Positions 1 to 17,284 of a DNA stretch of 17,284 nucleotides are shown here, one piece after another (the stretch's first letter is position 1; each line of letters opens with the position of its first letter). The stretch lies in contig JBAWVI010000005.1 of the NCBI GenBank assembly GCA_037147375.1, positions 1-17,284 on the forward strand, read 5' to 3'. This DNA comes from an archaeon (GTDB taxonomy: Archaea > Iainarchaeota > Iainarchaeia > Iainarchaeales > CSSED10-239). Below the pieces are notes generated by a model. It was not told where the DNA came from, made no database searches, and was given only the letters and a program-made list of their open reading frames with translations. The position numbers and the translations under genes are program-made.

Positions 1-1
1 A

Positions 2-220
2 TATTTCTTTTGCTTGTATTAAATCAAAATCATCTTTTTTATCAACATATATACTTTTTGGATTTATTTCTTTAATCTGTTTTAATAAATCAAGATTATC
101 TTCTGATCTATCATAAGTAATCCCAACAATATTATACTTATTGTTGTATTTTTTAAAGAAATCAATAATAGTTATTGATAACTCTGAATTAGATCCGAGT
201 ATAACTATGTTCTTCTTCAT
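2..220 (-). CDS. N-terminal part of a CDS that continues past the window start; Rossmann-like fold, family undecided (PurN/Fmt formyltransferase-like or Dxr-like N-terminus)
   Basis: ATG at 220-218, open down to position 2 (73 codons): MKKNIVILGSNSELSITIIDFFKKYNNKYNIVGITYDRSEDNLDLLKQIKEINPKSIYVDKKDDFDLIQAKEI. The strand / Gly-Ser loop / helix start is typical of Rossmann N-termini. Absent from the ORF track because it is truncated. TATA-like TTTTAAAG (251-244) lies 23 nt upstream of the ATG, with no SD. Confidence 0.45.
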   Translation of the reverse strand, partial: MKKNIVILGSNSELSITIIDFFKKYNNKYNIVGITYDRSEDNLDLLKQIKEINPKSIYVDKKDDFDLIQAKEI

Positions 221-274
221 AGATATAATAAAAGGAGATTAAGCTTTAAAAGGTATTGTAAACCATAGAGAATG

Positions 275-350
275 AGAAAAAAAATAAAAAAAAGAAAAAA
301 ATATTAAAAAAATAAAATCTGAAATAAATTTAGTTAAACAAATTTATTTC
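275..350 (-). terminator. Hairpin plus oligo-T terminator of micro-ORF unit 1
   Basis: Perfect 10-bp stem, 321-330 GAAATAAATT pairing with 341-350 AATTTATTTC, with a 10-nt loop. The stem covers the TAA stop (344-346). Long minus-strand T runs follow (plus-strand A runs at 275-320). Confidence 0.45.
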
Positions 351-379
351 TTCTTCTTAGCTGCTTTCTTCTTTACCAT
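344..379 (-). CDS. Poly-lysine micro-ORF 1 (11 aa: MVKKKAAKKKK)
   Basis: ATG GTA AAG AAG AAA GCA GCT AAG AAG AAG AAA TAA on the minus strand. Preceded by AGGGGGGAG (396-388), with GGAG 8 nt from the ATG. Its paralog at 639-689 keeps the ATG, the frame and the first 6 codons. Too short for the ORF track. Confidence 0.35.
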   Translation of the reverse strand: MVKKKAAKKKK

Positions 380-466
380 AGTCTTTTCTCCCCCCTTCAA
401 ATCAATAAAAAATTCTGTAAATTCAACAGAAAAATAAAATTATTAATTATATACTAAACAGAAACA

Positions 467-474
467 TATATAAA
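467..474 (-). promoter_or_regulatory. TATA box (TTTATATA) of micro-ORF unit 1
   Basis: Exact match to the archaeal TTTAWATA consensus in minus orientation, 88 nt upstream of the ATG at 379. The flanks are conserved in copy 2. Confidence 0.45.
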
Positions 475-564
475 TGATGTTGTTTATAGTTGTCCAAAAA
501 GTTTAGCACTTGTCCAAGAAATTGTGCGATGATTTTTAATTAAAAAAAGATTAAATTTAAAATG

Positions 565-606
565 AGATAAAACAAAAAAGGAAATAAATCAAAAATGATT
601 TATTTC
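565..606 (-). terminator. Hairpin plus oligo-T terminator of micro-ORF unit 2
   Basis: Perfect 11-bp stem, 581-591 GAAATAAATCA pairing with 596-606 TGATTTATTTC, with a 4-nt loop. On the minus strand it is followed by CTTTTTTGTTTTATCTCATTTT. Confidence 0.5.
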
Positions 607-638
607 ACCCTATTAAGAAAATTTATAAATCCTAGGAC

Positions 639-689
639 TTACTTCTTCTTCTTAACAACTTTTTTAGCTGCTGCTTTCTTCTTAACCAT
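639..689 (-). CDS. Poly-lysine micro-ORF 2 (16 aa: MVKKKAAAKKVVKKKK)
   Basis: ATG GTT AAG AAG AAA GCA GCA GCT AAA AAA GTT GTT AAG AAG AAG AAG TAA on the minus strand. Preceded by AGGGGGAG (703-696), with GGAG 6 nt from the ATG. It differs from copy 1 by a synonymous GTA/GTT change and by exactly 15 nt (5 codons) of length. Confidence 0.35.
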   Translation of the reverse strand: MVKKKAAAKKVVKKKK

Positions 690-773
690 TGTAGTCTCCC
701 CCTTTTTTTTCTCTGTAAAACAAATTTACAGAAGAATAATAATATATTTATTATTTATATAATGTTAGAAACG

Positions 774-781
774 TATATAAA
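774..781 (-). promoter_or_regulatory. TATA box (TTTATATA) of micro-ORF unit 2
   Basis: Same octamer and flanks (CATTTATATA[T/C]GTTTCT on the minus strand) as copy 1, 85 nt upstream of the ATG at 689. Confidence 0.45.
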
Positions 782-1038
782 TGTTTTTAATTTGCTTTTT
801 TTCAAAAAAAATAAATAAAATAGTTGTCCAATATTTCATGAATGTTAATTTAATGTAAGCACAGATAAATAAAGGGAATACAACGCATAGCTAATTACAA
901 CAGTTCACTAAAATAATATTTATGAAAAATATAAAATAAAAAAAAATAAAAGAAATTTGTTTCGTTTCATTAAAAAATAAGTGTCCAAGATTTAATGTAA
1001 TAAAAAAATAAAGAAATATATGGAAATAATTATAACTT

Positions 1039-2547
1039 TTATTCCCATTTACTCATATCATATCCTGCTTCTCTTAATTCTCCTTTTGTAAGTCCGAATA
1101 CTCTTGCTCGGTTAAGAGGTATTCTTGCATCATAAAGCTCTTGAGCACTATAATTAATACTTTTTGCTTTTAGAATTGGCAAATAAAAAGATATATTTTT
1201 TGGTTCTTCATGTTTTAATTTACTTAATATATATTTTGCATCTACTTTATTAAATAATTCATTAGTAATAAGAGCCTTTAATCCAATTGTATTTACAAAC
1301 TCATCTACATTAATTCCATTTATTTCTAAATCACTTAACTTAAATGTTTTTTCATTAAATATTCCAGCCTTTAGTAATTTTTTAAAATTAAATGTATTAT
1401 AAAGTTCTTTTTTGCTTACACCTGCTTCTTCCAAACTTTTCAATCCAAATTGTTCAAGTTCAGTTAATCTTATATCCGAATATTGTTTTTTTGTTTGTTC
1501 AACTAAATATTTAAGTCCAAATTCTTCTTTGAAGGTCTTTATTGGAATATCTCCTTTATGGTGATACAAATATTCAAATGGAGGCTTAATTTCTGCATTA
1601 TAAACTTCAGAAGATAATGCTCTTCTAGAAATTGTTCCATAAGGACCTAAACCTTTTCTAAATGTACCTATTATCATTATATCCTTTAAACTATAACCAT
1701 GATCCATTAGTTCCTTTAAAGTAAATCCCTCTTCTCTAATTAAAACATCTATTGGAAAAGAAGTTACTAATTCATTTACTTTATATATTCCTTCCTTAAC
1801 AAGTTCTTTTATTGGAACTGATTTAGATATAAATTGTCTATCAACCCCATTATCTAATAAATATTTATAACTATATCCTGCTTTTATTACTGCTCTACAA
1901 CTTATATGTGGGTAATATTCACTCCAATAATTTAGATCTCCACCACCGTATTCATGATAACTCTCAGATAGCATCTGTTGTAATGGCATTTCTGCATTTA
2001 ATAATGTCTTAATTGTATTTACTGGTGATTCTTTATAAGATTCTAAAGGTTCTCTAAATTCTTGAGCAACCCTTAATAATATTTGTTTTGAACCTAATAA
2101 CTTATTTATTTCTTTATATTTAAATTCACTTTCAAATAAATTATGTAATCCAATTTTTTTTTCAAAGATTTTATCAAGCCCTTCTTTTAAAAAATGTTCT
2201 TTTAATTTTTGCTTTAACTCATTATATTTTGCAATATGATTTTCTTCTTTAGGTTTAGGAAACTTTTTTATAAAATTAAGAAGCTCTTGTTTAGTAAATA
2301 ATTTATCAATATAATCTATTTTATTATGAGTAAATAAAGATAATGGATTAATTCCCATCTTAATTAGTTGTTCTTTTGAATATTTCTTATTTTGAAGAAT
2401 AGAATCTAATTTACTAATTCCTTCTTTTTGCTTTATAATCTCAAGTCTTTTCTTTGCTAATGCTTGCTCTTTGTCTTTAGTTAATGTTTTTTTAAATCTA
2501 TCAGCTGCTTTTGCAATATCTTTTATCATTGATTTTTTAACTGGCAT
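1039..2547 (-). CDS. Hypothetical 502-aa protein with degenerate ~11-residue tandem repeats (L-x-x-x-G-aromatic/aliphatic-S/T-x-x-E/D-L)
   Basis: Long ATG-initiated ORF. SD-like GAGGGT lies a few nt upstream, and TATA-like CTTTTATAAAG at ~2578-2588. Repeat units by residue number: AVIKAGYSYKY (219), LLDNGVDRQFI (230), LIREEGFTLKE (269), LMDHGYSLKDI (280), LEQFGLKSLEEAGVSKKEL (364), LLKAGIFNEKTF (391), LEINGINVDEF (407), VFGLTKGELREAGYDMSKW (483). I could not recognise a family. Confidence 0.8.
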   Translation of the reverse strand: MPVKKSMIKDIAKAADRFKKTLTKDKEQALAKKRLEIIKQKEGISKLDSILQNKKYSKEQLIKMGINPLSLFTHNKIDYIDKLFTKQELLNFIKKFPKPKEENHIAKYNELKQKLKEHFLKEGLDKIFEKKIGLHNLFESEFKYKEINKLLGSKQILLRVAQEFREPLESYKESPVNTIKTLLNAEMPLQQMLSESYHEYGGGDLNYWSEYYPHISCRAVIKAGYSYKYLLDNGVDRQFISKSVPIKELVKEGIYKVNELVTSFPIDVLIREEGFTLKELMDHGYSLKDIMIIGTFRKGLGPYGTISRRALSSEVYNAEIKPPFEYLYHHKGDIPIKTFKEEFGLKYLVEQTKKQYSDIRLTELEQFGLKSLEEAGVSKKELYNTFNFKKLLKAGIFNEKTFKLSDLEINGINVDEFVNTIGLKALITNELFNKVDAKYILSKLKHEEPKNISFYLPILKAKSINYSAQELYDARIPLNRARVFGLTKGELREAGYDMSKWE

Positions 2548-2663
2548 AATAATACCCTCTTTTCAATTAATTTATTAATCTTTATAAAAGTATTAAACAC
2601 AATTAGATTTATAAACATATCTTGAAGTTAAAAATAATAAAATAAAGAAAAAGGATGAAGATT

Positions 2664-2710
2664 ATAAAAAATAAAAAAAAAAAGAGTTCTTAGATTAAAA
2701 TTAATCTAAG
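2664..2710 (-). terminator. Hairpin plus oligo-T terminator after aEF-2
   Basis: Perfect palindrome CTTAGATTAA-AA-TTAATCTAAG (2689-2710) covering the TAA stop (2701-2703). On the minus strand it is followed by AACTCTTTTTTTTTTTATTTTTT. Confidence 0.5.
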
Positions 2711-4899
2711 AAGAATTCCCAAGTTTTTGGTTCAGGATCTATTCCTTTTCTCTTTCTAATATCCATGATTGTATCTTTCAAGATTGATTTAGGAAGCTTC
2801 TCATATCCTGAATATTCAGCAGTCCATACAGCTCTTCCTTGTGTCTCTCCTCTCATCTCTTGTGAGAAACCAATCATTGACTTAACAGGTATCTTACCAA
2901 CAATAATTGAAAGATCTCCTTCACTCTTGATATCTTCAATCTGTGTTCTTCTACCTGAAAGAACTCTTGAAACAGAACCCATGTAATCTTGTGGAACTGA
3001 TACAGTTAAATTCTGCTTTGGTTCCAAAAGAGTGTAGTCACTTGCAAGAACACCAGCATAGATAGCTCTAGTTATTGCAGGAAGAACCTGAGCAGGTCCT
3101 CTATGTATTGCATCCTCGTGTAATACTGCATCGTTTAGGTTAACAAGAATACCAGAAACTCTTTCTTTAGCAACTGGTCCTTCTCTTAATGCATCTTGGA
3201 ATGCTTCAATAATTAATTCTCTAGTTTCATTTAGGTTCTGTATTCCTTTTGTTCTATTAATTAAAATAGAATTATTGAAAACAGCCCAAATGTTCTTTGA
3301 TTCATCACCAGAGAAACCAATTTCTTGGAGCTTCTTCATGATTTCCATATCCTTGTTCTGTCTAATCTTACAATGAAGCTTTAACTTTCTTAACTTCTCA
3401 AGCATTTCTCCTTCAATAGGTTGTATCTGTATCTTGAACTTATTGTGCTTGGTTGGAGTTTTTCCTTCAATAACAGGTGAACCCTTTTGTATTGTTTCAT
3501 AATAAACAACAATTGGAGGGGAAACTGTTATTGGAATATTATTATCCTTCTCAATCTTGTATTGAGTAATTTCTAAGTGAAGTTCTCCCATTCCTGAAAT
3601 TAAGTGCTCTCCTGTTTCTTGATTTAATTCAGCTCTTATGTTTGGATCTTCTTTAGTAATATTATGAATAACATCAATTAATCTTGGAAGATCTTTTGAA
3701 TTCTTAGCTTCAATTGAAACAGTCATAACAGGTTCAACATCTGATAAGAAATCCTCAAATGGTTCCATCTCTCTATTTGCAAGTGTTTGACCAGTGTAAA
3801 TTTCTTTCATTCCAATTACACAAGCAATATTTCCTGCTTCAACCTCATCTAATATAACTCTTTCAGGTCCTAAGTATATTCCAACTTGTTGAACCTTACC
3901 TTCTTTGTCTGTACCTAATATTTTTAAGTCCATTCCTTTCTTAATTGAACCAGCGTATATTCTACCTGATGCAATATCTCCAGCATGCTTATCAAGAACA
4001 ATATCTGTTACCATCATAGCAACATCAGTGTCTCCCATTTCACAATTTTGCATTGCTTTTCCTTCTGGAGTACTAAGATCTCCTTTCCAAATGATTGGAA
4101 TTCTATATCCTTGAGCAACTTTTGGATTAGGTAAATGATTAATAACCATTTCTAAGAAAACATCTGAGATTGGTATCTTATCAGATAATTCTTTTTGTTG
4201 TTCTTTTTCACAATAATCAATAATATCTGCAAACTTTATATTGTACTTAGTCATTGCAGGAACAGACATTGCCCAATTATGATATCCTGAACCAAAACAA
4301 ACTGATCCATCTTTAATTGAAACTTGCCATTTTTGTTTTAATTCATCTACTGCATATCTTGAAATTAAATTATTAACATCCATTACAACCTTAACGAATT
4401 TTTTTTGCATGTCTTCAGGTGTAACGTGCATTTCTGTAATTAATCTATCAACTTTGTTAATGAAAAGAACAGGTCTAACTCTTTCCTTTAATGCTTGTCT
4501 TAAAACAGTTTCTGTTTGAGGCATAACACCTTCAACAGAATCAATAACTAGAACAGCTCCATCAACAGCTCTCATAGCTCTAATAACGTCTCCAGTGAAA
4601 TCAACGTGACCAGGAGTGTCTATAATATTAATTAAATATTTTTGATCGCCGAGTGCATATGGAACAGAAACGTTAGAAGCATTAATTGTGATTCCTCTTT
4701 CTTGTTCTAAGATATATGAATCCATGAAAACTTGTTCTCCTGCTAAATCTTTTGAGATTAAACCAGCAGTAGCTACAAGATTATCTGTAAGTGTTGACTT
4801 ACCATGATCAATATGTGCAATAATTGCAATATTTCTAATATTTTTTGTATTTGCCATCAACGTTTGTGCAAGTTCTGCAACTTGTTCTTTTCTTCCCAT
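2701..4899 (-). CDS. fusA: Translation elongation factor 2 (aEF-2)
   Basis: 732 aa. GTPase motifs AHIDHGKST (G1), DTPGH (G3) and NKVD (G4). Diphthamide-site motif HEDAIHRG. AGGTGA SD at 4912-4907. Canonical position downstream of rps12/rps7. Confidence 0.97.
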   Translation of the reverse strand: MGRKEQVAELAQTLMANTKNIRNIAIIAHIDHGKSTLTDNLVATAGLISKDLAGEQVFMDSYILEQERGITINASNVSVPYALGDQKYLINIIDTPGHVDFTGDVIRAMRAVDGAVLVIDSVEGVMPQTETVLRQALKERVRPVLFINKVDRLITEMHVTPEDMQKKFVKVVMDVNNLISRYAVDELKQKWQVSIKDGSVCFGSGYHNWAMSVPAMTKYNIKFADIIDYCEKEQQKELSDKIPISDVFLEMVINHLPNPKVAQGYRIPIIWKGDLSTPEGKAMQNCEMGDTDVAMMVTDIVLDKHAGDIASGRIYAGSIKKGMDLKILGTDKEGKVQQVGIYLGPERVILDEVEAGNIACVIGMKEIYTGQTLANREMEPFEDFLSDVEPVMTVSIEAKNSKDLPRLIDVIHNITKEDPNIRAELNQETGEHLISGMGELHLEITQYKIEKDNNIPITVSPPIVVYYETIQKGSPVIEGKTPTKHNKFKIQIQPIEGEMLEKLRKLKLHCKIRQNKDMEIMKKLQEIGFSGDESKNIWAVFNNSILINRTKGIQNLNETRELIIEAFQDALREGPVAKERVSGILVNLNDAVLHEDAIHRGPAQVLPAITRAIYAGVLASDYTLLEPKQNLTVSVPQDYMGSVSRVLSGRRTQIEDIKSEGDLSIIVGKIPVKSMIGFSQEMRGETQGRAVWTAEYSGYEKLPKSILKDTIMDIRKRKGIDPEPKTWEFFLD

Positions 4900-5051
4900 G
4901 TTATTTTCACCTGTATTTTTTAATAATTTTTATGTATTAAATCAATAGTTTTTGCGGATTGCTTAAAGCTATTAATGTACCACTTAAATTCAATATAAAT
5001 TGAAAAGTAGATATATATAATATATAGGGGAATTTATTTAAATACCTTTCC

Positions 5052-5948
5052 TTATAAGGCTTTAGGCTTAATAGGTTTCCTTTCAAAAAGCTTCTTGTTT
5101 CTCTTAATAAATTTAGTCATTTCCTTCTTTGTTTTATTAAGATTTTCTTTAGAATAAGCTTCTGCAATATATTTATCTAACTCTGGCTTAATTAACTTAA
5201 GAATTTCAGTATTACTTTTAATTGAAGGTACCTTATATTGATTAGGAATATATATGGATAAAGGTACTGGTTGAGTAATATAATTTGGTTTTTTTGTAAT
5301 TTTATTCAAACTATTTGTAATTTTATAAATATTTAAAGTTTCAGGATCTATTCCAAGTTTATTTATTCCTACATAAACTGTATTTGAAGTACCGGTTTTA
5401 GTTTTAACTATTAATATTTTTTCTTTACCATTAATATCTGCTTTAATAAATCTAATTGCTTTAGATTTTATAGCTCTTAAAAATCCTTCTAAAGTTAAAG
5501 CACAAGCATCCTGTAGATGATTAGAGATTACCTGTTGAGTAATTAGTCCATTTTTAATTCTAATAATTTCTAAAAATGGATTATATTTTTTTTCAACATA
5601 ATTATAGTATCTTTCAGATTCTAAAAATACAGAAAACTTATCTTGCTTAAGAGTAGACATCTCTTTTAATAGTTTTTTTCTATATTCATCTGGTTTTGAT
5701 AAAACATTATCAAGATGAGCAATAATTTCTTGATTATATATTATTAAATCATCTCTTTCAAAGTGAGATCTACTTGAGATGAATAATTTAAAAAAAGTTG
5801 GAAGATAAGTCTTAAGAAGAGGTTCATACTTTTCTGGATTTTGTGTATAAAAAGATATAGTCTTTAAGCTAGATAAATTATTTGATTTAATTTCATAATT
5901 AAAACTATTTTTCATAGAATTAATTAATTTAATTTTTATGTTTGACAT
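5052..5948 (-). CDS. Hypothetical 298-aa protein; possible winged-helix-like central segment (weak)
   Basis: ATG-initiated ORF with no SD. The segment GLITQQVISNHLQDACALTLEGFLRAIKSKAIRFIKADINGKEKILIVKT looks like helix-turn-helix followed by a beta-hairpin wing. Lys-rich C-terminus. No catalytic motif recognised. Confidence 0.7.
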   Translation of the reverse strand: MSNIKIKLINSMKNSFNYEIKSNNLSSLKTISFYTQNPEKYEPLLKTYLPTFFKLFISSRSHFERDDLIIYNQEIIAHLDNVLSKPDEYRKKLLKEMSTLKQDKFSVFLESERYYNYVEKKYNPFLEIIRIKNGLITQQVISNHLQDACALTLEGFLRAIKSKAIRFIKADINGKEKILIVKTKTGTSNTVYVGINKLGIDPETLNIYKITNSLNKITKKPNYITQPVPLSIYIPNQYKVPSIKSNTEILKLIKPELDKYIAEAYSKENLNKTKKEMTKFIKRNKKLFERKPIKPKAL

Positions 5949-5972
5949 ATAACATCTATCTTCTTGTGATTT

Positions 5973-5980
5973 TATTTAAA
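5973..5980 (-). promoter_or_regulatory. TATA-like box (TTTAAATA) for the 298-aa ORF, leaderless geometry
   Basis: 24 nt separate the box from the ATG at 5948 and there is no SD in between. The box overlaps the 3' end of the upstream 151-aa ORF. Confidence 0.4.
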
Positions 5981-5983
5981 TAC

Positions 5984-6439
5984 CTATTCTTTTCTTACTT
6001 TTGCTTCTATTTTATCAAGATAATCTTTGTACAATTTACTTTTTGGTTTCATTGAATAAAATACTCCTGCATTTAGAATTTCAAGAGTTGCATCTTCACT
6101 TTTTCTAATATCATCTAAGAAAATATTTCTGGATTCTAAATCTCGAAACACTCTTTCAGTTGCTTTTAATCTTAAAGCTAAGGTAATAGGACCAATCCAA
6201 CTCATTCCTGGCATCCACACAAGATGAACTTTATACTTACCCTTAAACTTACGAAAAACTTCATTATAGAATTGGCTTGATTTAGGATATTTCTTATTAA
6301 AGGTAAGATATAACTTATATTTATTATAACGATAAATAGTATTAACTTTATTTTTTAGTGTAGATATCTTTGAAGTAGGTTCTTTTTTAGGCTTGACTTC
6401 TTTTTTAGTAACTTCAAGCAATTTCTTTGGTGCTTTCAT
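5984..6439 (-). CDS. Hypothetical 151-aa basic protein; core shows weak colinear uS10-like motifs (unconfirmed)
   Basis: ATG-initiated ORF. Lys-rich N-terminal ~35 aa, then YKLYLTF (strand), SSQFYNEVFRKF (helix), GPITL (83-87, compare the uS10 hallmark GPIPLP), NIFLDDI (105-111, compare RLIDI/RLVDI), SEDATLEIL (114-122, compare PTEKTVDALM) and AGV (124-126, compare AGVDV). Confidence 0.7.
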   Translation of the reverse strand: MKAPKKLLEVTKKEVKPKKEPTSKISTLKNKVNTIYRYNKYKLYLTFNKKYPKSSQFYNEVFRKFKGKYKVHLVWMPGMSWIGPITLALRLKATERVFRDLESRNIFLDDIRKSEDATLEILNAGVFYSMKPKSKLYKDYLDKIEAKVRKE

Positions 6440-6461
6440 TAGGATATTAAATCTGAAAACA

Positions 6462-6469
6462 TTTATAAA
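6462..6469 (-). promoter_or_regulatory. TATA-like box (TTTATAAA) for the 151-aa ORF, leaderless geometry
   Basis: 22 nt separate the box from the ATG at 6439, with no SD-like GGTG/GGAG in between. Confidence 0.4.
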
Positions 6470-6530
6470 TAGATAGAAAAAGATTATAAAAATAAAAAAA
6501 ATAAGAAAATAAAGAAAATAAATTCTTTAT

Positions 6531-7130
6531 TTATCTAGAACTTTGTGCAATTCTTTCGATTTCATCTCTCTTCTTTACTGCATAACTCTTTTGATCGTTC
6601 TTTGAAGCTAAGATGATTTCTTCTGCAAGTGCTACTGAAAGCTCTTTCTTTACTTTAAATGTTTTTGAGAATGCTGCGAGTGCAAGATTCTTAAGTGCTT
6701 CATCAAGTCTTTTAATTGGAGCTAAATCAACTGCTTGATTTGATACTACTCCACCTCTTTGAAGTCTTACAACATCTTCTCTTGGAGCACTAAATTCAAG
6801 TGCTTTAACAAGAACCTGTATAGGATTTTCCTTAGTTGTTTTGTTAATGTAATCAAATGCTAAATCCACTGATTTAATCATTAAATCCTTTTTACCACAC
6901 CCTTTCTTTCCTCTAATGAACTTACCAGAAAGCTTTTTCTTTCCTTGTCCTGATCTCATAAGCTTATTGATTAATCTTTCAACAACATTAACCTTAGCTT
7001 TTTCAACAGGTGTACTCTTTCTAGCACCATGTGTGTGTGGTATAACCTTTTCTTTCAAACAAAGGTACTTTGCAATACCTAAATCTGCAGAAATTACTTC
7101 TTTTGTTTCCCATTTATTAAAAATTTTCAT
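6531..7130 (-). CDS. rps7: 30S ribosomal protein S7 (uS7)
   Basis: 199 aa, archaeal/eukaryotic-type uS7 (N-terminus MKIFNKWE..., C-terminal ...AVKKRDEIERIA). GGTG SD about 9 nt upstream. Immediately downstream of rps12. Confidence 0.93.
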   Translation of the reverse strand: MKIFNKWETKEVISADLGIAKYLCLKEKVIPHTHGARKSTPVEKAKVNVVERLINKLMRSGQGKKKLSGKFIRGKKGCGKKDLMIKSVDLAFDYINKTTKENPIQVLVKALEFSAPREDVVRLQRGGVVSNQAVDLAPIKRLDEALKNLALAAFSKTFKVKKELSVALAEEIILASKNDQKSYAVKKRDEIERIAQSSR

Positions 7131-7150
7131 AATTTAACACCATTTTATAT

Positions 7151-7181
7151 TTAAAAATAAAAAAGAGATATTTATCTCTTT
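7151..7181 (-). terminator. Hairpin plus oligo-T element between rps12 and rps7 (terminator or attenuator)
   Basis: 8-bp stem, 7162-7169 AAAGAGAT pairing with 7174-7181 ATCTCTTT, with a 4-nt loop. It covers the rps12 TAA stop (7172-7174). On the minus strand it is followed by TTTTTTATTTTT. Confidence 0.4.
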
Positions 7182-7606
7182 GATTTCTCCTTCTTTCCTG
7201 TTCTTAACATTTCAAGGGATTGATCATTAACTTTAATAACCTTGTACTTAACACCCCAAAGATCTCCAACAGGTCCACCTTTACGTCCACCAATTCCTTC
7301 AACAGTTACTTGGTCGTGTATTTCAATGAACTTAATAGCTTTATCCTTTGGTGCAAGTGCTGTTAATTCCTTACCATTCTTAATAAGTTTAACTCTAACA
7401 CATTTTCTAATTCCAGAGTTTGGCTGTCTTGCTGTAATTCCTTTCTTTTCAAGCACAATTCCTTTTCCTTGTGGTGCTCCTTCAAGAAGTCCAGCTTTTT
7501 TATGAACCTTAACACTTCTTTTGTATCTAGGATCTTTCTTATTCCACTTTATTCTGTTTTTAATATTTTTCTTTGCAGCGAATTCGCCGTTTGCTCCTCT
7601 ACTCAT
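7172..7606 (-). CDS. rps12: 30S ribosomal protein S12 (uS12)
   Basis: 144 aa. Diagnostic ...[38 protein letters not shown]... and C-terminal [16 protein letters not shown] upstream. Confidence 0.96.
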
Positions 7607-7634
7607 AATATCTTCACCTTAATCTTTAAAATTT

Positions 7635-7904
7635 CTATTCAATATGTTTTTTACTTTTTCTTATTTTTTCAATTATAGTTTCTTTCCATAATTTTACTGC
7701 GTATTCTAAATTTATTTTTTTTTCTTTAGCTAAATTTTGAATTGCTAAGATTATTCCTGGTGCTCTTTCTTCAGAAGCTTCAATACCTAACTTCTTTAAA
7801 AACATAACATCCAAGGATTCTTTTAATTTTGATTTTTTATTAAATGGACGTATGTTTTCTTTTATTTTTTGTGTTTTTCTTTTAAAGTTAGAGCCTTTGC
7901 CCAT
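7635..7904 (-). CDS. Hypothetical 89-aa basic, predicted helical protein occupying the nusA slot
   Basis: The ATG lies 4 nt after the rpl30e stop, with AGTGAT SD inside the rpl30e 3' end. It ends 28 nt before rps12. No KH-domain pattern is visible apart from an N-terminal GKGS. Confidence 0.7.
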   Translation of the reverse strand: MGKGSNFKRKTQKIKENIRPFNKKSKLKESLDVMFLKKLGIEASEERAPGIILAIQNLAKEKKINLEYAVKLWKETIIEKIRKSKKHIE

Positions 7905-7908
7905 AACA

Positions 7909-8406
7909 TCACTTTTTCTTAATCTTTATGATGCTTTTGAATAACTCATCATCTTGTATTGGTTTTTCTTCTTCTTCTTTTTGTCTAATTTCTTTAGCTT
8001 TCTTTATTTCGTCTTTTTCTTCTTTCTTTTTAACTTTTCCTTCTTTCTTTTCAGTTTTAGCTTTAGTTCTTGCATTTTCCTTAACAACTATAATATCCTT
8101 AGCATCCATTACAGCAAGTATGCTTGATTCACCAACATCTAATACTCCAAGAACAGAAATACTAAAAGGTTTACCACAAACAGAACCAAGTTCAACACCA
8201 GATTCTAAATAAGTAATTACTTTTACTCCAGCAAGCTTACAATAGTGTTCAATTTGCTTCTTTTGAAGTACCTTAACAGTACTTGCAAGAACAACGAGCT
8301 TAGGGTCTCCCACTAATGTTTCTCTAACTATTTCTTTTGTACCATAAAGAACTTTTCCAGTGTCTACTGCAATTCTTAATTGTTGATTAAATTTATTCCA
8401 ATCCAT
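7909..8406 (-). CDS. rpl30e: 50S ribosomal protein L30e (eL30) with a ~60-aa Lys/Glu-rich C-terminal extension
   Basis: The N-terminal ~100 aa match the L30e/L7Ae-fold pattern (LRIAVDTGKVLYGTKE..., PKLVVLAS..., YLESGVELGSVCGKPFSISVLGVLDVGES). Canonical position after rpoA2. The tail is VVKENARTKAKTEKKEGKVKKKEEKDEIKKAKEIRQKEEEEKP... Confidence 0.88.
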   Translation of the reverse strand: MDWNKFNQQLRIAVDTGKVLYGTKEIVRETLVGDPKLVVLASTVKVLQKKQIEHYCKLAGVKVITYLESGVELGSVCGKPFSISVLGVLDVGESSILAVMDAKDIIVVKENARTKAKTEKKEGKVKKKEEKDEIKKAKEIRQKEEEEKPIQDDELFKSIIKIKKK

Positions 8407-8504
8407 ATTATTTCACTTCATTATTTTTATTTTTAATTTTTTTTCCTTTTTTTCTATTTATATATAATATTTATGTTCCTAAATGTTTAAAAAAGAATTT
8501 AAAC

Positions 8505-9659
8505 TTATTCTTCCTCGTTTGCTTGTATCATCTTCTTTAAATTTTTCGGATCAAGTGTTAATTTAACAAGACCAGTTCCTGCTGAAATTGGTTGTCCAAC
8601 TATTAAATTTTCTGTAATTCCTGTAAGTCTTTCAGTTTCATGATAGAATGCAGCTGAAAGTATGTGCTTTACAGTTTCTTCAAATGCAGCTCTTGCAAAT
8701 GGACTTGTTTTTTCTCCAGTTATTCCAGTTCTAACAATACCCTTAACTCTTCCACCGAAGGTCATAAGATCTGCTAAAACAAAAATATGTCTAAGATTAA
8801 TATCAATAGAGTTTGAACTAAATGTACTACTTAATTCATTAACAATTGCTTGTCTTCCTGCTTCAATTCCAAGAACTTTATTAATTTCAACAACATCATT
8901 TGTTATTGATCTAAGTGAATCAACTTCTTCAAACTTTAATATTTCTGATAAATTTGTTCCTCTTGTAATAATTACAAACTCATCTCCAACTTGTGTAACA
9001 ACAACCTTGTCAATGTGCTTAACACCGAAAAGAGGTATACTCTTCCATTTTAAAACTCCTTTTCTAATTGTGTAAAGTGGAGTTGTTGAATCAAATGCAA
9101 AGTTAATTTTCTTCTTATTATCTCCAAATCTTTTTGAAGAATAGATTTCATCAATTTTATCATAAACTAAATCCATGATTGTTTCTTTATTAATTCCTGC
9201 TTCATCAACTTTATCTTCATCTAAAATAAAAGATAAACTTTTATTTTCAAAGTTTTCTTCAAAGTTACCAACATCTTCAACCTTGATATCTACAAGACTG
9301 CTTGCAAATGCTTTTACTTTCTTTTCATTCTTAATAAGTTCAGATTTTAAGTATATTTTCATTGAAGGATACTTAGATGATAAACGTCCATCAACTATTT
9401 CAATAACTCTTTGTATTCCTTGACCTACAGAAACTTCTAAAGATCCAGCATAGTGCTTAGTTCTTAATGTTAACTGAGTTCCAGGTTCACCAATTGATTG
9501 AGCAGCAATAAGTCCTATTGCATCTCCAGGTGTAACTAGTGCATTATTATATCTATTAGATACAATTTCAACTAGTTTTTTCCTTTTTGCATCACTAAAC
9601 TTTTTAGTTTTAGCATACGCTTCAATTCTTTCTAGAACCAATGTAGGTAATTCTCTCAT
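8505..9659 (-). CDS. rpoA2: DNA-directed RNA polymerase subunit A'' (Rpo1C)
   Basis: Contains GDAIGLIAAQSIGEPGTQLTLRTKHYAG and C-terminal ...SPFARAAFEETVKHILSAAF...ENLIVGQPISAGTG. The ORF track starts at a TTG (9668). I prefer the ATG at 9659-9657 (MRELP...), which is preceded by SD-like GTTGAT. Confidence 0.93.
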   Translation of the reverse strand: MRELPTLVLERIEAYAKTKKFSDAKRKKLVEIVSNRYNNALVTPGDAIGLIAAQSIGEPGTQLTLRTKHYAGSLEVSVGQGIQRVIEIVDGRLSSKYPSMKIYLKSELIKNEKKVKAFASSLVDIKVEDVGNFEENFENKSLSFILDEDKVDEAGINKETIMDLVYDKIDEIYSSKRFGDNKKKINFAFDSTTPLYTIRKGVLKWKSIPLFGVKHIDKVVVTQVGDEFVIITRGTNLSEILKFEEVDSLRSITNDVVEINKVLGIEAGRQAIVNELSSTFSSNSIDINLRHIFVLADLMTFGGRVKGIVRTGITGEKTSPFARAAFEETVKHILSAAFYHETERLTGITENLIVGQPISAGTGLVKLTLDPKNLKKMIQANEEE

Positions 9660-9717
9660 AACAATCAACTTTTTTTTATTTTAATTTTTAAATATACTGT
9701 CCAACATTTAATACAAT

Positions 9718-12303
9718 TTACTCATGGAAGAAGTTTATATTCTTTCCAAGATATGCTTTATCTGGTGAAAGTCCATCATCTCCATATAGGAATTGTATAA
9801 CTTGCCCATCTGCAGTTCTTACACTTAAATCATCATTAACAATTAAATCCTTTAATGCATTTGATAATCTTCTGTATAAGTATCCTGAAACCTTTGTTGC
9901 AACACCTGTATCAATTTCTCCTTGACGTCCACCAATTGAGTGTATGAAATACTCTTTTGGTTCCATTCCATTAAAGAAATTGTTCTTTACAAATCCATAA
10001 TCCATTAACGCTTTTGTTCCAACAACATTTGAACTTAAGAATCTATTTGAGAAACCTGCTTTTGGTCTACCTGATCTAACAGTAACAAGACCCCATAAAG
10101 CAACTATGTTAGCAACGTTACCAAGCTTTCCACGAGATCCACCAATACTTGCAATTAATGTTGAGTTATTGTATGCAATCTTAGTTTCACTTGTCATTTC
10201 TTCAAATTTAATTTCAAGAAGTTTATTTGAAATTTCTTCTTTTGTTTCTCCTGCAGCTCTAATCATTTCAAGCTCGAAGGTTTCTGCTAAATTTTTACCA
10301 GGTATTAAAGGTAATGACTTAGTTTCAAATTTCTTAATGATTCCATTTGTAGTTGCAATTAATTTCTTAACTTTTGTATCAATTTCATCTTGCAATGTAT
10401 CTGGTGTTTTATATTCATCAAGAGCAATTGTAAGTCCTTTCTTACTAAGTGTATAGAAAACAAGCTTTGATAAATTATAATAAAACTCAACAGCAACTCT
10501 CTTATCATAATGTCTAACAAGAACATCAATTAAATTTCTAGGAGCATATAGTTTTTCATCAACAACTCCAGAAACAAGGCGTCCTTTTTCAACCTTAAAA
10601 TAACAATCGTACTTATCAACATCTTTTTGAGTAACTTTACCTTTAACCTTTCTTAATACAGTAAACAATTTATTATAATATTCTATATTAAGATCCTTTG
10701 GTAATATTTGAGAAAAGATAAGCTTACCAGAATACTTTGTTCTATCAACATCTGCTGCTGGAAGTTCAGTTATTCCAATTGAATATAACATTTCCATTGC
10801 TTCTTTCTTTGTAAACACAGTATCTTTCTTTGTTAATAAATAACCACCTGAAACAATATCATGATCAGGAACAATGATTGGTGATCCATTTCTAATACTT
10901 AAGATTTGTGAATCAACCATTAATAAATTATTAATTTCTGCAACTGCTGCTTCACTTTGTGGACAATGAAGATTCATTTCATCACCATCGAAATCAGCAT
11001 TGTATGGAGGACAAGCAATTGGATTTAATCTAAATGTTTTACCAGGTAAAACTTTAATCTTATGTCCCATAATTGATGCTCTATGAAGTGTTGGTTGTCT
11101 GTTAAATATAACAACATCTCCATCTCTTAATTTTCTTTTAATTGTTGCTCCATCTTCAAGCCCGTCCATTAATTCTTGCTTGTTTGCAAGATTAATTATT
11201 TTTCTTCTTCCGTTCTTTGTGATAATGTAATCAACAAATCCTTTATCAATTTGTTCCTTACAATATTCTTTATTCCAAGAAGTTACTTTTTCTGGCATTG
11301 TTAAAGTATTTGCAACTTGTTCAGGAACACCAAGTTCATCAATTCTAATATCAGTTGATGGAGTGATTGTTGTTCTTGCACCAGCATTTACTCTTTTACC
11401 AATTAAGTTATATCTAAATCTTCCTTTCTTACCCTTAAGTCTTTGTGCAAGAGTATTAAGTGCTCTTCCAGATCTATGCTTTGCAGGTGGAACACCAGCT
11501 GTATTATTATCAAAATAAGTTGTTATATTGTACTGTAAAAGATCCCAAAGATCTTCAACAATAATTTGTGGTGCACCAGCAACTATATTTTCTTGTAATC
11601 TTGTATTAATTCTAACAATATTAAGTAACATGTGTGTTAAATCTGATTCAGCAGTAATTACGTTTTCAAGTGATAATGAAGGTCTAATTGCTACTGGAGG
11701 AACTGGTAATGTAGTTAATACAAACCATTGTGGTTTAAGTGTTTGTGAATATCCAAACAAGAATAAATCTTTATCTGGAATCTTAATTAACCAATCAGTA
11801 ATATCTGATGGATATAATCTTTCTTGATTATAATAAAAGTTAGTTGGCTTATCAATTGTAACCTTTGGAGTTTCAATTCCACAATGGGGACATTTCTTTT
11901 TATCTCTAACGAGTCCAACAATTTCCTTTGTTGCTTTTTCTGGGTCTGCAGCAAGTGCAAGAAGATCAGTTATGTCTTCTTCAGGAATCATTATTCTTCC
12001 ACATTCTCTACAAGTACATGAAAGAACAGAATAAAGTTTTTCAGAAAATTTAGGATGAATAACAGGTCTAATTAATTCAATGTGCCCAAAGTGACCAGGA
12101 CAATCTCTCATATTCTGTCCACAAGTCTTACATCTAAGTCCAGGAGAAATAACACCAAGATGAAGATCCATTACTCCTCTCTCAATAGGGTAACCATCCT
12201 TATCATATGTTTCAGCTCTTGTAATTTCAACAGCAGACATTTTTCTAACCATATCTGGTGAAAGCACAGAAAACTCAATTGATCTAATTTTTTTTATAGG
12301 CAT
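9718..12303 (-). CDS. rpoA1: DNA-directed RNA polymerase subunit A' (Rpo1N)
   Basis: 861 aa. N-terminal zinc motif CKTCGQNMRDCPGHFGHIEL. Catalytic YNADFDGDEMNLH. NRQPTLHRASIMGH. Confidence 0.97.
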   Translation of the reverse strand: MPIKKIRSIEFSVLSPDMVRKMSAVEITRAETYDKDGYPIERGVMDLHLGVISPGLRCKTCGQNMRDCPGHFGHIELIRPVIHPKFSEKLYSVLSCTCRECGRIMIPEEDITDLLALAADPEKATKEIVGLVRDKKKCPHCGIETPKVTIDKPTNFYYNQERLYPSDITDWLIKIPDKDLFLFGYSQTLKPQWFVLTTLPVPPVAIRPSLSLENVITAESDLTHMLLNIVRINTRLQENIVAGAPQIIVEDLWDLLQYNITTYFDNNTAGVPPAKHRSGRALNTLAQRLKGKKGRFRYNLIGKRVNAGARTTITPSTDIRIDELGVPEQVANTLTMPEKVTSWNKEYCKEQIDKGFVDYIITKNGRRKIINLANKQELMDGLEDGATIKRKLRDGDVVIFNRQPTLHRASIMGHKIKVLPGKTFRLNPIACPPYNADFDGDEMNLHCPQSEAAVAEINNLLMVDSQILSIRNGSPIIVPDHDIVSGGYLLTKKDTVFTKKEAMEMLYSIGITELPAADVDRTKYSGKLIFSQILPKDLNIEYYNKLFTVLRKVKGKVTQKDVDKYDCYFKVEKGRLVSGVVDEKLYAPRNLIDVLVRHYDKRVAVEFYYNLSKLVFYTLSKKGLTIALDEYKTPDTLQDEIDTKVKKLIATTNGIIKKFETKSLPLIPGKNLAETFELEMIRAAGETKEEISNKLLEIKFEEMTSETKIAYNNSTLIASIGGSRGKLGNVANIVALWGLVTVRSGRPKAGFSNRFLSSNVVGTKALMDYGFVKNNFFNGMEPKEYFIHSIGGRQGEIDTGVATKVSGYLYRRLSNALKDLIVNDDLSVRTADGQVIQFLYGDDGLSPDKAYLGKNINFFHE

Positions 12304-12341
12304 ATATAATCATTCTCTTAATTTTCTAACTTTAATAATCT

Positions 12342-14159
12342 TTAATCTATTTTATCTCCAACATTTAACTTAGGGAATACTCCAAGTGCTTTAAGTTCAT
12401 CAAGTAATAACTTGAAACCATAACTAATCTTAACTTGGTGAATATTTCCACCTTTACAGATTGGACAATATAATTTATTTCTAATCTTATCATTGATTGC
12501 AAGAACTCCACAATCTGAACAAATATGAACATCAAGTTGATCAGAATCATCCATTAACTTTTCATGAAGTAACATTGCTGCACCATGTCCAACAAGAGCA
12601 TCTCCTTCCATCTCTCCAAATCTAAGACCTCCACCTTTTTCTTTACCTTCAGTTGGTTGTCTTGTTAATAATTGGATAGATCCTTTATCTCTTGCTTGTA
12701 TTTTATTTGTTACAACGTGGTATAATCTTTTAAATGAAATTGGTCCAACAAAGATTGGCATTTCTATTTTTTCTCCAGTTATTCCATCAAAGAATACTTC
12801 TTTACCATCTTCTCTAAATCCAAGTGATAAAAGAAGTTTTTGAATTGCATCTTTATCTGAATAGAAAGCAGTTCCATCTATTTCCTTTCCAGAAAGAGCT
12901 CCAGCTTTTGCTGCAATTGTTTCAAACATGTGTCCAATTGTCATTCTTGAAGGAATTGAATGTGGATTTAATATAAAATCAGGTTTAATTCCACTTGATG
13001 TAAATGGCATATCTTCTTCATTAATAACTGCACCAACAACACCCTTCTGTCCGTGATGTGAAGAAAACTTATCTCCAACTTGTGGAATCATTGTTGATCT
13101 AACCTTAATCTTACAAAGTTTAACTCCTGCTAAAGTCAATGTTATAAGAACCTTATCAACATGTCCATTTAAGTGCTTTCTAGCTGTTACTGAAGATTCA
13201 CGTCTGTCTTCTGAAACAACACCGAACTCAGATATTTCTTCAACAAATCTTGGAGGGGATGTCATTCCAATTACAACTCCACCTTCAGGAACATATGTTT
13301 CAATATTTGCAATTCCATCTTCGCCTAAATTTTTATAAGCATCGTCTCCTCTAAAACCTATTGTTGTTTCTCCAGGTATTTTGAAATCATCAGCTTGTCC
13401 TGATGGATATCTGTTTTCTTGAGCTGAATATGATCTATAATAAGATGATCTACCAAGTCCTCTTTCAACTGCTCCTTTATTCATGATTAAAGCATCAATC
13501 ATATTATATCCACGATATGGCATGATTGCAACAATTGAATTTTGAATCATTGGTCTTCTATCAATGTTTAACATTTTTTCTGTTCTTGTTGTTACAAGTG
13601 GTTTTTGTGGATAATAAAGAACATGCATTTCTGTATCAAATCTATGCTTGTAATTAACAGCAGGTATTCCAACAGCTTGCTTGAAAATCTTAGCACCGAA
13701 AATAGCTTTTCCAGCCATGTTGTGGTGAGCAAATGGAATCATTGATGTAATTATTGAAAAGATTGCAGTTCCTGAAATTTCAAGATGTGTATGATCAGGA
13801 GTAATGTCTTTATCATCAAGTGCAACATATGCATTTTCTTCTTCTTCAGCATCAAGGTATTCAATTATTCCTTTTTTAACAAGTTCTGGCCATAATACTT
13901 TTTTATTTTTAACGTCTTCTAGAACTTCTTTAGTTAATTTAGATTTACTATTTTCAACAATTATTAATGGTCTTTGTACTCTTCCACCATCTGTGTTAAT
14001 GTACATCTCATTAGTTTCTTCTCTAAAAGCTATGTTTATTTGAGAATCAATCATTCTTGATCTTCTCTTTCCAATTAGCTCTTTTCTTAGCTTAGAAGGG
14101 TTATTGTGGAAACCAACAAGTCCACCATTAACATAAATCTTACATTTTGATTGTGCCAT
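12342..14159 (-). CDS. rpoB1: DNA-directed RNA polymerase subunit B' (Rpo2C, C-terminal part of a split B)
   Basis: 605 aa. GDKFSSHHGQKGV, GGLRFGEMEGDAL, and the C-terminal zinc ribbon CSDCG...CPICKG. Confidence 0.96.
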   Translation of the reverse strand: MAQSKCKIYVNGGLVGFHNNPSKLRKELIGKRRSRMIDSQINIAFREETNEMYINTDGGRVQRPLIIVENSKSKLTKEVLEDVKNKKVLWPELVKKGIIEYLDAEEEENAYVALDDKDITPDHTHLEISGTAIFSIITSMIPFAHHNMAGKAIFGAKIFKQAVGIPAVNYKHRFDTEMHVLYYPQKPLVTTRTEKMLNIDRRPMIQNSIVAIMPYRGYNMIDALIMNKGAVERGLGRSSYYRSYSAQENRYPSGQADDFKIPGETTIGFRGDDAYKNLGEDGIANIETYVPEGGVVIGMTSPPRFVEEISEFGVVSEDRRESSVTARKHLNGHVDKVLITLTLAGVKLCKIKVRSTMIPQVGDKFSSHHGQKGVVGAVINEEDMPFTSSGIKPDFILNPHSIPSRMTIGHMFETIAAKAGALSGKEIDGTAFYSDKDAIQKLLLSLGFREDGKEVFFDGITGEKIEMPIFVGPISFKRLYHVVTNKIQARDKGSIQLLTRQPTEGKEKGGGLRFGEMEGDALVGHGAAMLLHEKLMDDSDQLDVHICSDCGVLAINDKIRNKLYCPICKGGNIHQVKISYGFKLLLDELKALGVFPKLNVGDKID

Positions 14160-14180
14160 AATATTTCACTTTCTTTAAAT

Positions 14181-15635: not shown

Positions 15636-15671
15636 TATTTATCACATTTAATTTAAGTTTAATAACTAAGT

Positions 15672-16016
15672 CTATTCATCAACAACTCTTCTATAATAAA
15701 CAGTTTCTCCAACAAGTGGATTAAACCTTTTAATTTTAATAACGTCTCCAACTTTAACTTCCATGTGTCTGATAGCAGGATCAGAAATATAAATGAAAGG
15801 AAGTTTTTCAGGTTCTATTTTTTTCTTTGCAAGTTCAAGAACCTCTTCTTCGTTTAAGACATCATGAGAAGGAACGTAATTATGTTTTATTTCTTCCTTA
15901 AGTCTTCTTTGCCTTCTAGTCTTTCTATAAGATGCAATTTCATCAACATCTTCTTGACCATCTTCTCTTGGTTCTTTAATTTTAATTTTATTTCCTTGAC
16001 CTTTTATTCTGCCCAT
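15672..16016 (-). CDS. rpoH: DNA-directed RNA polymerase subunit H (Rpo5) with a ~44-aa charged N-terminal extension
   Basis: The C-terminal ~70 aa match the RpoH/Rpb5 C-domain pattern: HNYVPSHDVLNEEEV...LPFIYISDPAIRHMEVKVGDVIKIKRFNPLVGETVYYRRVV. First gene of the canonical rpoH-B-A cluster. SD-like GAAGTG upstream. Confidence 0.9.
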   Translation of the reverse strand: MGRIKGQGNKIKIKEPREDGQEDVDEIASYRKTRRQRRLKEEIKHNYVPSHDVLNEEEVLELAKKKIEPEKLPFIYISDPAIRHMEVKVGDVIKIKRFNPLVGETVYYRRVVDE

Positions 16017-16389
16017 GAAGTCAACACTTCCTTTATAGTTTAAATTTAATAATTATAATTATTTAGAGTTATGGCTATACTTTTATGGCTGTCCTTAAAT
16101 GTATTTAAGATTAAATAAAATTGCGTAATGATGGATAATGATAAGTATATTGCCAAAAACAAGAACATAAGATAATTAGAAAGCAAAACATTTAAAAAGA
16201 GTTTGTTTTTATCCCTTGGATTAGGGTTATGTAGCTTTCTATAACCCATTTTTGTTTAAAAAGGTTCTGGTCTCTAGATTTTCTTAAAAATATTTAGAAA
16301 GGGAAAGTAATTTAAAGCTTACTCATAACCTATATTTAGTTTATATTATATAAGTCTATATTTATATTAAAATTAAAGGTGAAAAATAT

Positions 16390-17094: not shown

Positions 17095-17123
17095 ATTGCT
17101 TGAATATTTTTTCTTTTTTTTTA
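17081..17123 (+). terminator. Intrinsic-terminator-like hairpin plus T tract after the KaiC-like gene
   Basis: 9-bp stem, 17081-17089 TCAAGCAAT pairing with 17095-17103 ATTGCTTGA. The 5-nt loop contains the TAA stop (17092-17094). Followed by ATATTTTTTCTTTTTTTTTATTT. Confidence 0.55.
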
Positions 17124-17264: not shown

Positions 17265-17284
17265 TCTTTTCCTTTATTTTGCCC

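Follow-up and report, generated by a model that had tools for sequence, protein, structure and literature searches.

Two adjacent lysine-rich mini-genes of an Iainarchaeota archaeon as probable contracted members of a syntenic lysine-repeat gene family

This study concerns two very short, lysine-rich open reading frames (ORFs), here called mini-gene copies 1 and 2, on contig JBAWVI010000005.1 (assembly GCA_037147375.1), of which positions 1 to 17,284 were analysed and are referred to as the window. The EF-2 protein encoded there places the source among the DPANN Iainarchaeota (Diapherotrites), with 96% identity to a metagenome-assembled genome (MAG) of an uncultured archaeon and 78-80% to Candidatus (Ca.) Forterrea multitransposorum and other 'Iainarchaeum' MAGs. 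The archaeon is AT-rich, the GC content of the window being 21-35%, and the minus strand carries all of its large genes: RNA polymerase B, A' and A'', L30e, a NusA-sized ORF, S12, S7, two unknowns, EF-2 and a 502-residue protein (synteny rpoB/A - L30e - NusA - S12 - S7 - EF-2). Downstream of the gene for the 502-residue protein come copy 2, copy 1 and then a gene for a DXP-reductoisomerase-like (DXR-like) protein.

The elements of each copy are listed in Table 1, and every one of them could be read on the minus strand at the coordinates given in the original prediction, which had proposed two paralogous, stand-alone, translated units. The copies align with each other over promoter, Shine-Dalgarno (SD) sequence and ORF, and the 20-mer ATGGTWAAGAAGAAAGCAGC at the start codon is present in two exact copies in the window, where 0.01 would be expected. 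The TATA box lies about 80-100 nt from the ATG across all units examined (89-92 nt for copy 2). From the usual archaeal TATA spacing of the transcription start site (TSS), the 5′ untranslated region (5′UTR) would be about 50-65 nt long, and some 60 nt in copy 2, with its stem some 10 nt from the 5′ end. The terminator stem of copy 1 is 11-12 bp long and encloses the stop codon. Singly, the hairpins fold only modestly better than shuffled sequence (z = -1.5 to -2.9), so the window sequence alone does not prove a function for the stems, and the case for real hairpins rests on the comparative data given below. A scan for sigma-70 promoters and intrinsic terminators was uninformative for an archaeon, the terminators going unmatched because their stems are AT-rich. 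We also noted a 55-residue Phe/Leu-rich ORF on the plus strand (595-762), antisense to copy 2. We consider it an artefact produced by the poly-purine coding strand, a mirror ORF of the sort that a gene caller might choose in place of the true lysine ORF.

Table 1. Coordinates of the mini-gene elements and of the adjoining features in the window
Feature	Coordinates	Strand	Basis or detail
Copy 1 TATA box TTTATATA	467-474	minus	sequence; ATCATTTATATATGTTTC identical in 5/7 lineages
Copy 1 5′UTR stem-loop TTCTGT/ACAGAA	413-431	minus	fold and comparison
Copy 1 SD AGGGGGGAG, 8 nt before ATG	388-396	minus	sequence
Copy 1 ORF MVKKKAAKKKK, 11 residues plus TAA	344-379	minus	ATG 379, TAA 346-344
Copy 1 putative terminator, stem GAAATAAATTT/AAATTTATTTC (350-321) plus T runs (317-275)	275-350	minus	fold
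Copy 2 TATA box TTTATATA	774-781	minus	purine-rich BRE-like (B recognition element) AAAAACA precedes
Copy 2 5′UTR stem-loop TCTGTAAA/TTTACAGA	712-732	minus	fold, -9.3 kcal/mol, z = -2.9
Copy 2 SD AGGGGGAG, 6 nt before ATG	696-703	minus	sequence
Copy 2 ORF MVKKKAAAKKVVKKKK, 16 residues plus TAA	639-689	minus	ATG 689, TAA 641-639
Copy 2 putative terminator, stem GAAATAAATC/GATTTATTTC (606-581), then CTTTTTTGTTTT	569-606	minus	fold
Two phased TTGGACA boxes, 43 and 23 nt upstream of copy 1 TATA	517-511, 497-491	minus	comparison
TTGGACA box, putative transcription-factor site, 50 nt upstream of copy 2 TATA	825-831	minus	comparison
DXR-like gene (ATG at 220) and promoter	1-251	minus	PF02670 match of L002 orthologue, E = 2e-13

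Related loci, designated by L numbers, were recovered via EF-2, via the DXR-like protein in metagenomes and via look-ups of DXR-like homologues. Seven lineages carry mini-genes: the window with the near-identical L012, L002 (= L011), L019 (= L020), L026, L014, L022 and L023 (= L024); L025 is a partial eighth. In all seven, both units are found in the same order on the minus strand, between EF-2 (or a gene inserted after EF-2) and the DXR-like gene, whose product shows 61-78% identity to that of L002 across these lineages. Each unit has a TATA box, a 5′UTR stem-loop, a GGGGGAG SD, an ATG and a stem-loop/oligo-T terminator. The TATA block (A)CATTTATA[TA]A..GTTT is kept in 21/21 units, and GGGGGAG is invariant in all 14 mini units. 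The original prediction had called for a search of relatives for the module, and ATG, SD and frame proved to be kept in all of these units. In a four-way alignment the conserved blocks are precisely the TATA region, an AT-rich block that is transcribed first, both arms of the hairpin, GGGGGAG, the start codon, the Lys codons, both arms of the terminator and the T runs, and it is in the spacers and loops that the sequences diverge. Moreover, the terminator stem of copy 2 is identical in the window, L012, L002, L014, L019, L022, L023 and L026, with variable loops, and that of copy 1 is kept by wobble or compensatory changes in L002, L019, L014 and L025, again with different loops; L025 has two compensatory pairs in its copy-1-type stem. 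The stretch TTTATTTTTTTAATATTTTTTT from the copy 1 terminator region is identical in four aligned lineages. As had been anticipated, gene callers overlook these units: the source annotation calls no gene in the interval, either in the window or in any other of the seven mini-gene lineages.

The encoded peptides fall into two length classes. Orthologues of copy 1 have 10-13 residues (MVKKKAAKKKK, MVKKKAKAKKK, MVKKKAKKKK, MAKAKPKKKKK, MPAKKTDKKKKKK, MAKAKAKPKKKK and MPAKSKAKKKKK) and those of copy 2 have 16-26: besides the peptide of the window, MVKKKVVKKTVAKKPAKKVVKKKKKK, MVKKKVKAKPKTVKKKKK, MVAKKKPVKKAAPKKKKKK, MVAKKTTKAKTPVKKKKK, MVAKKKPTKAKTPVKKKKK and MVAKKKPTTAKKKKKK. Lys residues number 7 in copy 1 and 9 in copy 2 of the window, and 7-15 across orthologues. 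Without the initial Met the mini-gene products are 63% Lys, the rest being Ala, Val, Pro and Thr plus one Asp and one Ser.

All 14 mini-ORFs are intact. The conservation of start, frame and stop, together with substitution that is specific to codon phase, classes them as protein-coding genes. They contain 124 Lys codons, 82 of them AAG, and every G in their purine-only codons (82/82) occupies codon position 3. Correspondingly, AGA, AGG, GAA, GAG and GGN codons are absent from the 14 ORFs, which encode neither Arg nor Glu nor Gly. Were the purine tract non-coding, nothing would be expected to keep G in the same phase with a far-off ATG over separate runs. The original prediction had pointed to a frame-preserving length difference between the two copies, and the orthologues behave likewise: copy 2 ORFs of 16 and 26 codons differ by 30 nt, in frame, between organisms whose EF-2 proteins are 96% identical. 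AAG makes up 66% of the Lys codons of the mini-genes, against 38% in the large genes of the window and about 50% in the EF-2 and ribosomal-protein genes. This bias would fit either high expression or avoidance of A runs. In being conserved as coding units of about 11 codons that gene callers overlook, the mini-genes resemble the 11-residue peptides of Drosophila tarsal-less/polished-rice (tal/pri) and bacterial small proteins of fewer than 30 residues. However, tal/pri is eukaryotic and polycistronic and conserves a motif, whereas the genes described here are archaeal and monocistronic and conserve a composition.

The 5′UTR stem is found in every unit and changes on both sides. Between the window and L002, the copy 2 stem differs by two compensatory pairs (CTGTAAA/TTTACAG to TTGCAAA/TTTGCAA), with a U-G intermediate in L012, and the copy 1 stem of L002 and L019 carries a compensatory G-C to A-U change (TTCTAT/ATAGAA). 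A MAFFT alignment of the 5′UTRs was structurally inconsistent and the stem arms were therefore aligned by hand for the covariation count. In that alignment 95% of cells are paired, three of the six stem pairs show both-sided changes (C-G to U-A; G-C to A-U; and, at the inner pair, U-A, C-G and A-U). The covariation score reaches 0.393, whereas shuffles give 0.193 and none of 500 attains it; all slid registers give far lower covariation. The loop varies from 3 to 9 nt across units (5-9 nt in copy 1), and such variation speaks for a stem formed in RNA and against a dimeric or palindromic operator. As to its role, mRNA stabilisation or translational control would be our guess.

Further upstream, a single TTGGACA box stands about 50 nt (49-54) before the TATA box in six of the seven copy 2 units, L023 having TAGGACG instead, and in 8/8 of the longer homologous genes described below. 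Copy 1 has boxes at 23 and 43 nt in all seven lineages, joined in L014 and L023 by a further one at 63 nt; the period is 20 nt. The motif TTGGAC[AG] occurs at 1.28/kb in intergenic and 0.21/kb in genic DNA, a six-fold difference, and all intergenic matches are sense-oriented. Because the box positions are fixed and helically phased, a transcription-factor site is indicated, and TTGGAC[AG] is probably the site of a lineage-specific regulator. On the minus strand of the window the motif is found at 982-988, 825-831, 511-517, 491-497 and 9698-9704, with equivalents in L002-L027, and its wider consensus is about cATTAAATnTTGGACAnTTATTTTTT. A copy is found after the EF-2 stop in almost every lineage; another lies between rpoA' and rpoA''. 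In L006, L016 and L018 the copy at the EF-2 stop is part of a hairpin (GACACT..AGTGTC), of which it makes up the 5′ arm. Another conserved block, ..TGT.TY.CCTTTATTTAT.., is situated about 45 nt upstream of the copy 2 box (window 850-888, minus strand; L012 at about 3330-3372; L002 at about 2554-2598), and CTCCTTRATTTA in L003 and L008 resembles it. In three lineages a possible third micro-ORF (888-850 in the window, MRCIPFIYLCLH) can be read as a hydrophobic ORF of 12-14 codons, with the products MRCIPFIYLCLH, MVRCTSFIYLHLQ and MGVVCISFIYGCLQ. L019, L022 and L026 do not preserve this ORF, and it was rejected as coding.

In eight more distant lineages (L003, L004 = Forterrea, L005, L006 = L016, L008, L015, L018 and L027) the same slot is filled by one gene, whose product of 42-79 residues consists of K/A/V/P repeats in tandem, as in MVVKKKAPVKKAVVKKKAPVKK... 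and MAVKKKVVAKKAPAKK..., with 5- and 10-residue repeats such as KKAPVKKAVV. The residue alphabet of the mini-genes (K, A, V, P, T) equals that of this long family. Upstream of the long genes lie the same promoter block (ACATTTATAAATGTTTA), a TCTG..CAGA 5′UTR stem-loop and a GGAGG-type SD of the form GGAGGGAG. When the upstream module was made into an nhmmer profile, every mini and long unit was matched (E = 1e-15 to 1e-21) and nothing else in the 215 kb searched; all matches lie in the EF-2 / DXR-like slot and are sense-oriented. A dispersed repeat of the miniature inverted-repeat transposable element type, which the original prediction had named as a reading to be checked, would have many copies in both orientations and regardless of context, and for the 215 kb searched it is rejected. 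Taken together, the common slot, promoter block, hairpin, SD and profile matches indicate that the mini-genes are duplicated, repeat-contracted members of a syntenic lysine-repeat gene family. Copy 1 looks like a copy 2 from which everything between the final Lys codons and the stem of the terminator has been deleted, with the stop now inside GAAATAAAT. The same comparison bears on the G-run SD. It does differ from the GGTGA type that had been claimed for the neighbouring genes and that we found on reading them, but its supposedly unusual form is derived from the GGAGGGAG SD of the long genes; GGGGGAG aligns with their GGAGGGAG / GGAGGGGAG. That these are real translated genes derived from the lysine-repeat family is, taken alone, highly probable.

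The family is essentially unannotated, because an exact look-up of eight members in a collection of 15 billion proteins returned none (0/8) and because the sole long gene with readable gene calls, that of L027, is called by JGI (the Joint Genome Institute) as a 78-residue product with no Pfam family. Moreover, no description of the locus was found in the literature on lysine-rich or H1-like proteins in DPANN and other archaea or on Forterrea. Bacteria and eukaryotes were already known to have H1-like lysine-rich proteins; what we found no description of is a family of this kind in DPANN archaea, or its contraction to conserved genes of 10-26 codons.

Among curated models, those of histone-H1-like proteins give the long orthologues their highest scores, each time below the cut-off. 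The 79-residue Forterrea orthologue scores 35.4 bits (E = 1.5e-8) against PF07382 HC2, below the gathering threshold of 40 bits, and neither the 56-residue protein of L005 nor the 26-residue protein of L002 matches that model. Long orthologues reach at best 33.7 bits (E = 4e-8) against NF038053 and 21.7 bits against NF038052, where the cut-offs are 80 and 135 bits, and the 26-residue peptide matches neither. A search of 5.8 billion proteins with the 79-residue orthologue returned KKAPAKK tails on L30, HU, tautomerases and others. We rejected these as relatives, the similarity being only compositional and the bearers unrelated bacterial proteins. By composition (Lys >45%, K/A/P/V low complexity, short tandem periodicity) the family belongs with H1-tail-like polycations, which are a functional class and not a group defined by homology. 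What is shared is composition and type of repeat; this supports the suggestion that the protein may work like an H1 tail and not membership of an H1-like family. No Rfam 15 family was matched at gathering score in the whole window, nor at E <= 1 in positions 1-1100, and a tRNA/tmRNA scan of the window found nothing.

Low-complexity K/A/P/V repeats and a very high positive charge are shared with bacterial H1-like proteins (Hc2/PF07382, the Burkholderia-type NF038053, AlgP and the KKAPAKK tails of HU and L30). In contrast to these, the family described here is archaeal (DPANN) and stand-alone, has no folded domain and scores below threshold. Its forms in the window have shrunk to 11 and 16 residues in two separately promoted genes, and its binding to DNA is a prediction. 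The C-terminal domain of eukaryotic histone H1 and the protamine-like sperm proteins are disordered Lys/Ala/Pro-rich polycations in which charge density matters more than sequence, and the family is like them in its Lys/Ala/Pro-rich polycationic character. It has, however, neither a globular winged-helix domain nor S/TPKK motifs and is far shorter, and homology is not demonstrable.

Several observations concern the neighbouring genes. The DXR-like gene adjoins the lysine gene in all lineages. Its protein is divergent (L002:3241-4389), with a weak match to the C-terminal domain, and since an enzyme of the methylerythritol phosphate (MEP) pathway is unexpected in an archaeon it may act on another substrate. 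Its TATA-like element TTTTAAAG lies at 251-244, 31 nt before the ATG, and suggests that the mRNA is leaderless or nearly so. The promoter block CAATACCTTTTAAA is kept in four aligned mini-gene lineages, and a similar TATA-like block precedes the downstream gene at a similar distance in the long-gene lineages. Beyond the DXR-like gene lie a D-aminoacyl-tRNA deacylase and then a block of dNK/thymidylate kinase, SHMT, thymidylate synthase, DHFR and dCTP deaminase. On the other side, the 502-residue protein (window 1039-2547, minus strand) has a weak 'decapeptide repeat' match (PF25296, 46 bits). The closest relatives, L012 and L002, lack its gene here, the mini-genes coming straight after EF-2, and in L026 a different gene of 333 codons with no Pfam match is inserted at its place. 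The 3′ flank of EF-2 therefore seems to be a hotspot of strain-specific insertions. Between S7 and EF-2 the minus-strand ORFs 5052-5948 (298 residues) and 5984-6439 (151 residues) belong to no significant Pfam family and show only a weak NYN-ribonuclease-like match (E = 0.006). The S12-S7-EF-2 cluster is otherwise canonical for archaea; L022 has different genes between S7 and EF-2, including a phosphoenolpyruvate-utilising enzyme.

We hypothesise that each copy is an independent monocistronic archaeal transcription unit, consisting in order of one or more TTGGACA boxes, a BRE/TATA promoter, a 5′UTR with a stem-loop, a strong SD, an ATG, an ORF of 10-26 codons specifying almost only Lys with Ala, Val, Pro and Thr, and a stem-loop plus oligo-T terminator. 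The ancestor would have been a single syntenic K/A/V/P repeat gene, like the Lys-rich C-terminal tail of histone H1 or bacterial H1-like proteins, and duplication with repeat contraction would have produced two genes in two stable length classes. Their oligolysines would be produced abundantly and, as diffusible polycations, would bind to nucleic acid and neutralise it, be it chromosomal DNA or rRNA and ribosomes, and would thus represent a minimal form of H1-tail-like protein action. We put the probability that these are oligolysine polycation genes at roughly 0.6. Their anatomy, their paralogy, their orthology to the long gene, their conservation and the constraint on coding phase are observed. 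High expression, the TSS, the role of the hairpin, the boxes as a regulator site and nucleic-acid binding are what we infer from sequence features.

Several points weigh against this interpretation. The organism is uncultured, and expression and peptide alike are predicted from DNA. A peptide of 10-13 residues in which nothing is fixed but Lys richness would be an unusual functional product, and lengths and sequences drift fast, which fits weak constraint on all but composition. The long orthologues do not share the AAG bias (29% AAG), and slippage of AAG trinucleotides could help to hold G in phase within a run. The covariation in the 5′UTR stem was counted on an arm alignment made by hand and fitted to the structure, and its figures are somewhat inflated. 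Lastly, the resemblance to H1 says little on function because it is compositional and lies below every curated threshold.

Of the three roles that the original prediction had left open, the polybasic microprotein is the one favoured by the evidence. This need not make the peptides eL41-like, as had been suggested. Ribosome-bound microproteins, held in an rRNA groove or an inter-subunit site, would suit the position of the genes at the end of the RNA polymerase / S12 / S7 / EF-2 cluster, their strong SD and AAG-rich codons, as in ribosomal-protein genes, and the KKAPAKK-type tails found on L30 in other organisms. Like eL41 (25 residues), bL36, bS22 and bTHX, the products are very short and highly basic and come from independent genes beside a ribosomal gene cluster. 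However, those proteins are Arg-rich and conserved in sequence and length, whereas this family runs from 10 to 79 residues, with copy 2 varying between 16 and 26 at the EF-2 identity noted above and the long genes reaching 42-79, unlike a fit to a fixed rRNA pocket. The 26-residue orthologue matches neither eL41 (PF05162) nor any other Pfam family at E <= 1, and a PDB sequence search with the 79-residue orthologue, ribosome chains included, gave only a low-complexity match to a sigma factor (E = 0.6). We consider ribosome binding of this kind unlikely, and the family is better described as a contracted, lineage-specific, H1-tail-like lysine-repeat gene. Rather less likely is that the units are decaying remnants of the long gene, perhaps still transcribed and translated into functionless peptides. 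Derivation by repeat contraction is clear and peptide sequence is poorly conserved beyond composition, as decay would have it, yet both units persist in lineages as far apart as the DXR-like identities indicate, with promoter, hairpin, SD, ATG, frame and terminator intact and a narrow length class for each copy. Moreover, the 5′UTR stem undergoes compensatory change within the subclade, and flanking spacer diverges much faster.

A pair of small RNAs, in each of which a 5′ and a 3′ hairpin frame a G run and a purine tract, would account for two conserved stem-loops around a short purine-rich core and for stems that are better kept than the peptides, the ORF being incidental or the RNA dual-function. 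The locking of G to the ATG frame across separate Lys runs in all 14 ORFs tells against it and disfavours a pure small RNA in particular, as do the preserved SD-to-ATG spacing, the in-frame length changes, the alphabet shared with a clearly coding homologue of 42-79 residues and the lack of a match to any Rfam family; we regard it as improbable. Export would be more improbable again. On that reading the products would be antimicrobial peptides or host-interaction factors of an episymbiotic DPANN cell; oligolysines are membrane-active, and the named relative Ca. Forterrea was predicted to be a symbiont (PMC5905446). Against export, the products have no signal peptide, no transporter or maturation gene is adjacent and the context is housekeeping and nucleotide metabolism. 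Least probable, to the point of being remote, is that the ORFs are translated leaders in which the progress of the ribosome over Lys codons sets read-through into the DXR-like gene. Their layout resembles that of an amino-acid attenuator, in that a short ORF dominated by a single amino acid precedes a hairpin with a T run and a same-strand gene lies downstream. But what comes after copy 2 is copy 1 and not a gene under control, each unit has its own terminator and the DXR-like gene has its own conserved promoter of leaderless type, and because of these last two features the leader role raised in the original prediction is disfavoured. In contrast to attenuators, the units have no regulated downstream cistron, and their folds offer one stable stem per region with no alternative anti-terminator pairing. 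The DXR-like neighbour is unlinked to lysine metabolism, and homologues that are full-length proteins of up to 79 residues cannot be leaders.

In summary, the polycation reading joins two stand-alone genes that keep intact ORFs, a locked codon phase and compensatory hairpin changes in seven lineages to a longer gene in the same slot. We can extend it only speculatively, and with more doubt than belief, to the proposal that strongly expressed oligolysines of 10-26 residues, controlled by a lineage-specific regulator at the TTGGACA boxes, serve as the bulk nucleic-acid counter-ion or condensing agent of ultra-small DPANN archaea in place of polyamines or histone tails. If true, these would be smaller than any other independently transcribed protein-coding gene described in Archaea, and the family would provide a natural series from 79 down to 10 residues of how far a charge-only protein can shrink. 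They are among the smallest stand-alone genes known to us, and the size limit of a conserved, independently promoted archaeal gene would drop to about 10 codons, at a whole conserved locus that annotation pipelines overlook. Orthologues of 79, 42, 26, 16 and 10 residues make up a test set for charge-only function, and the promoter, the phased TTGGACA boxes and the 5′UTR stem-loop offer an entry to the expression signals of an uncultured lineage. Moreover, an H1-tail-like lysine-repeat family would be added to the DPANN archaea, whose chromatin and RNA-binding proteins are poorly known.

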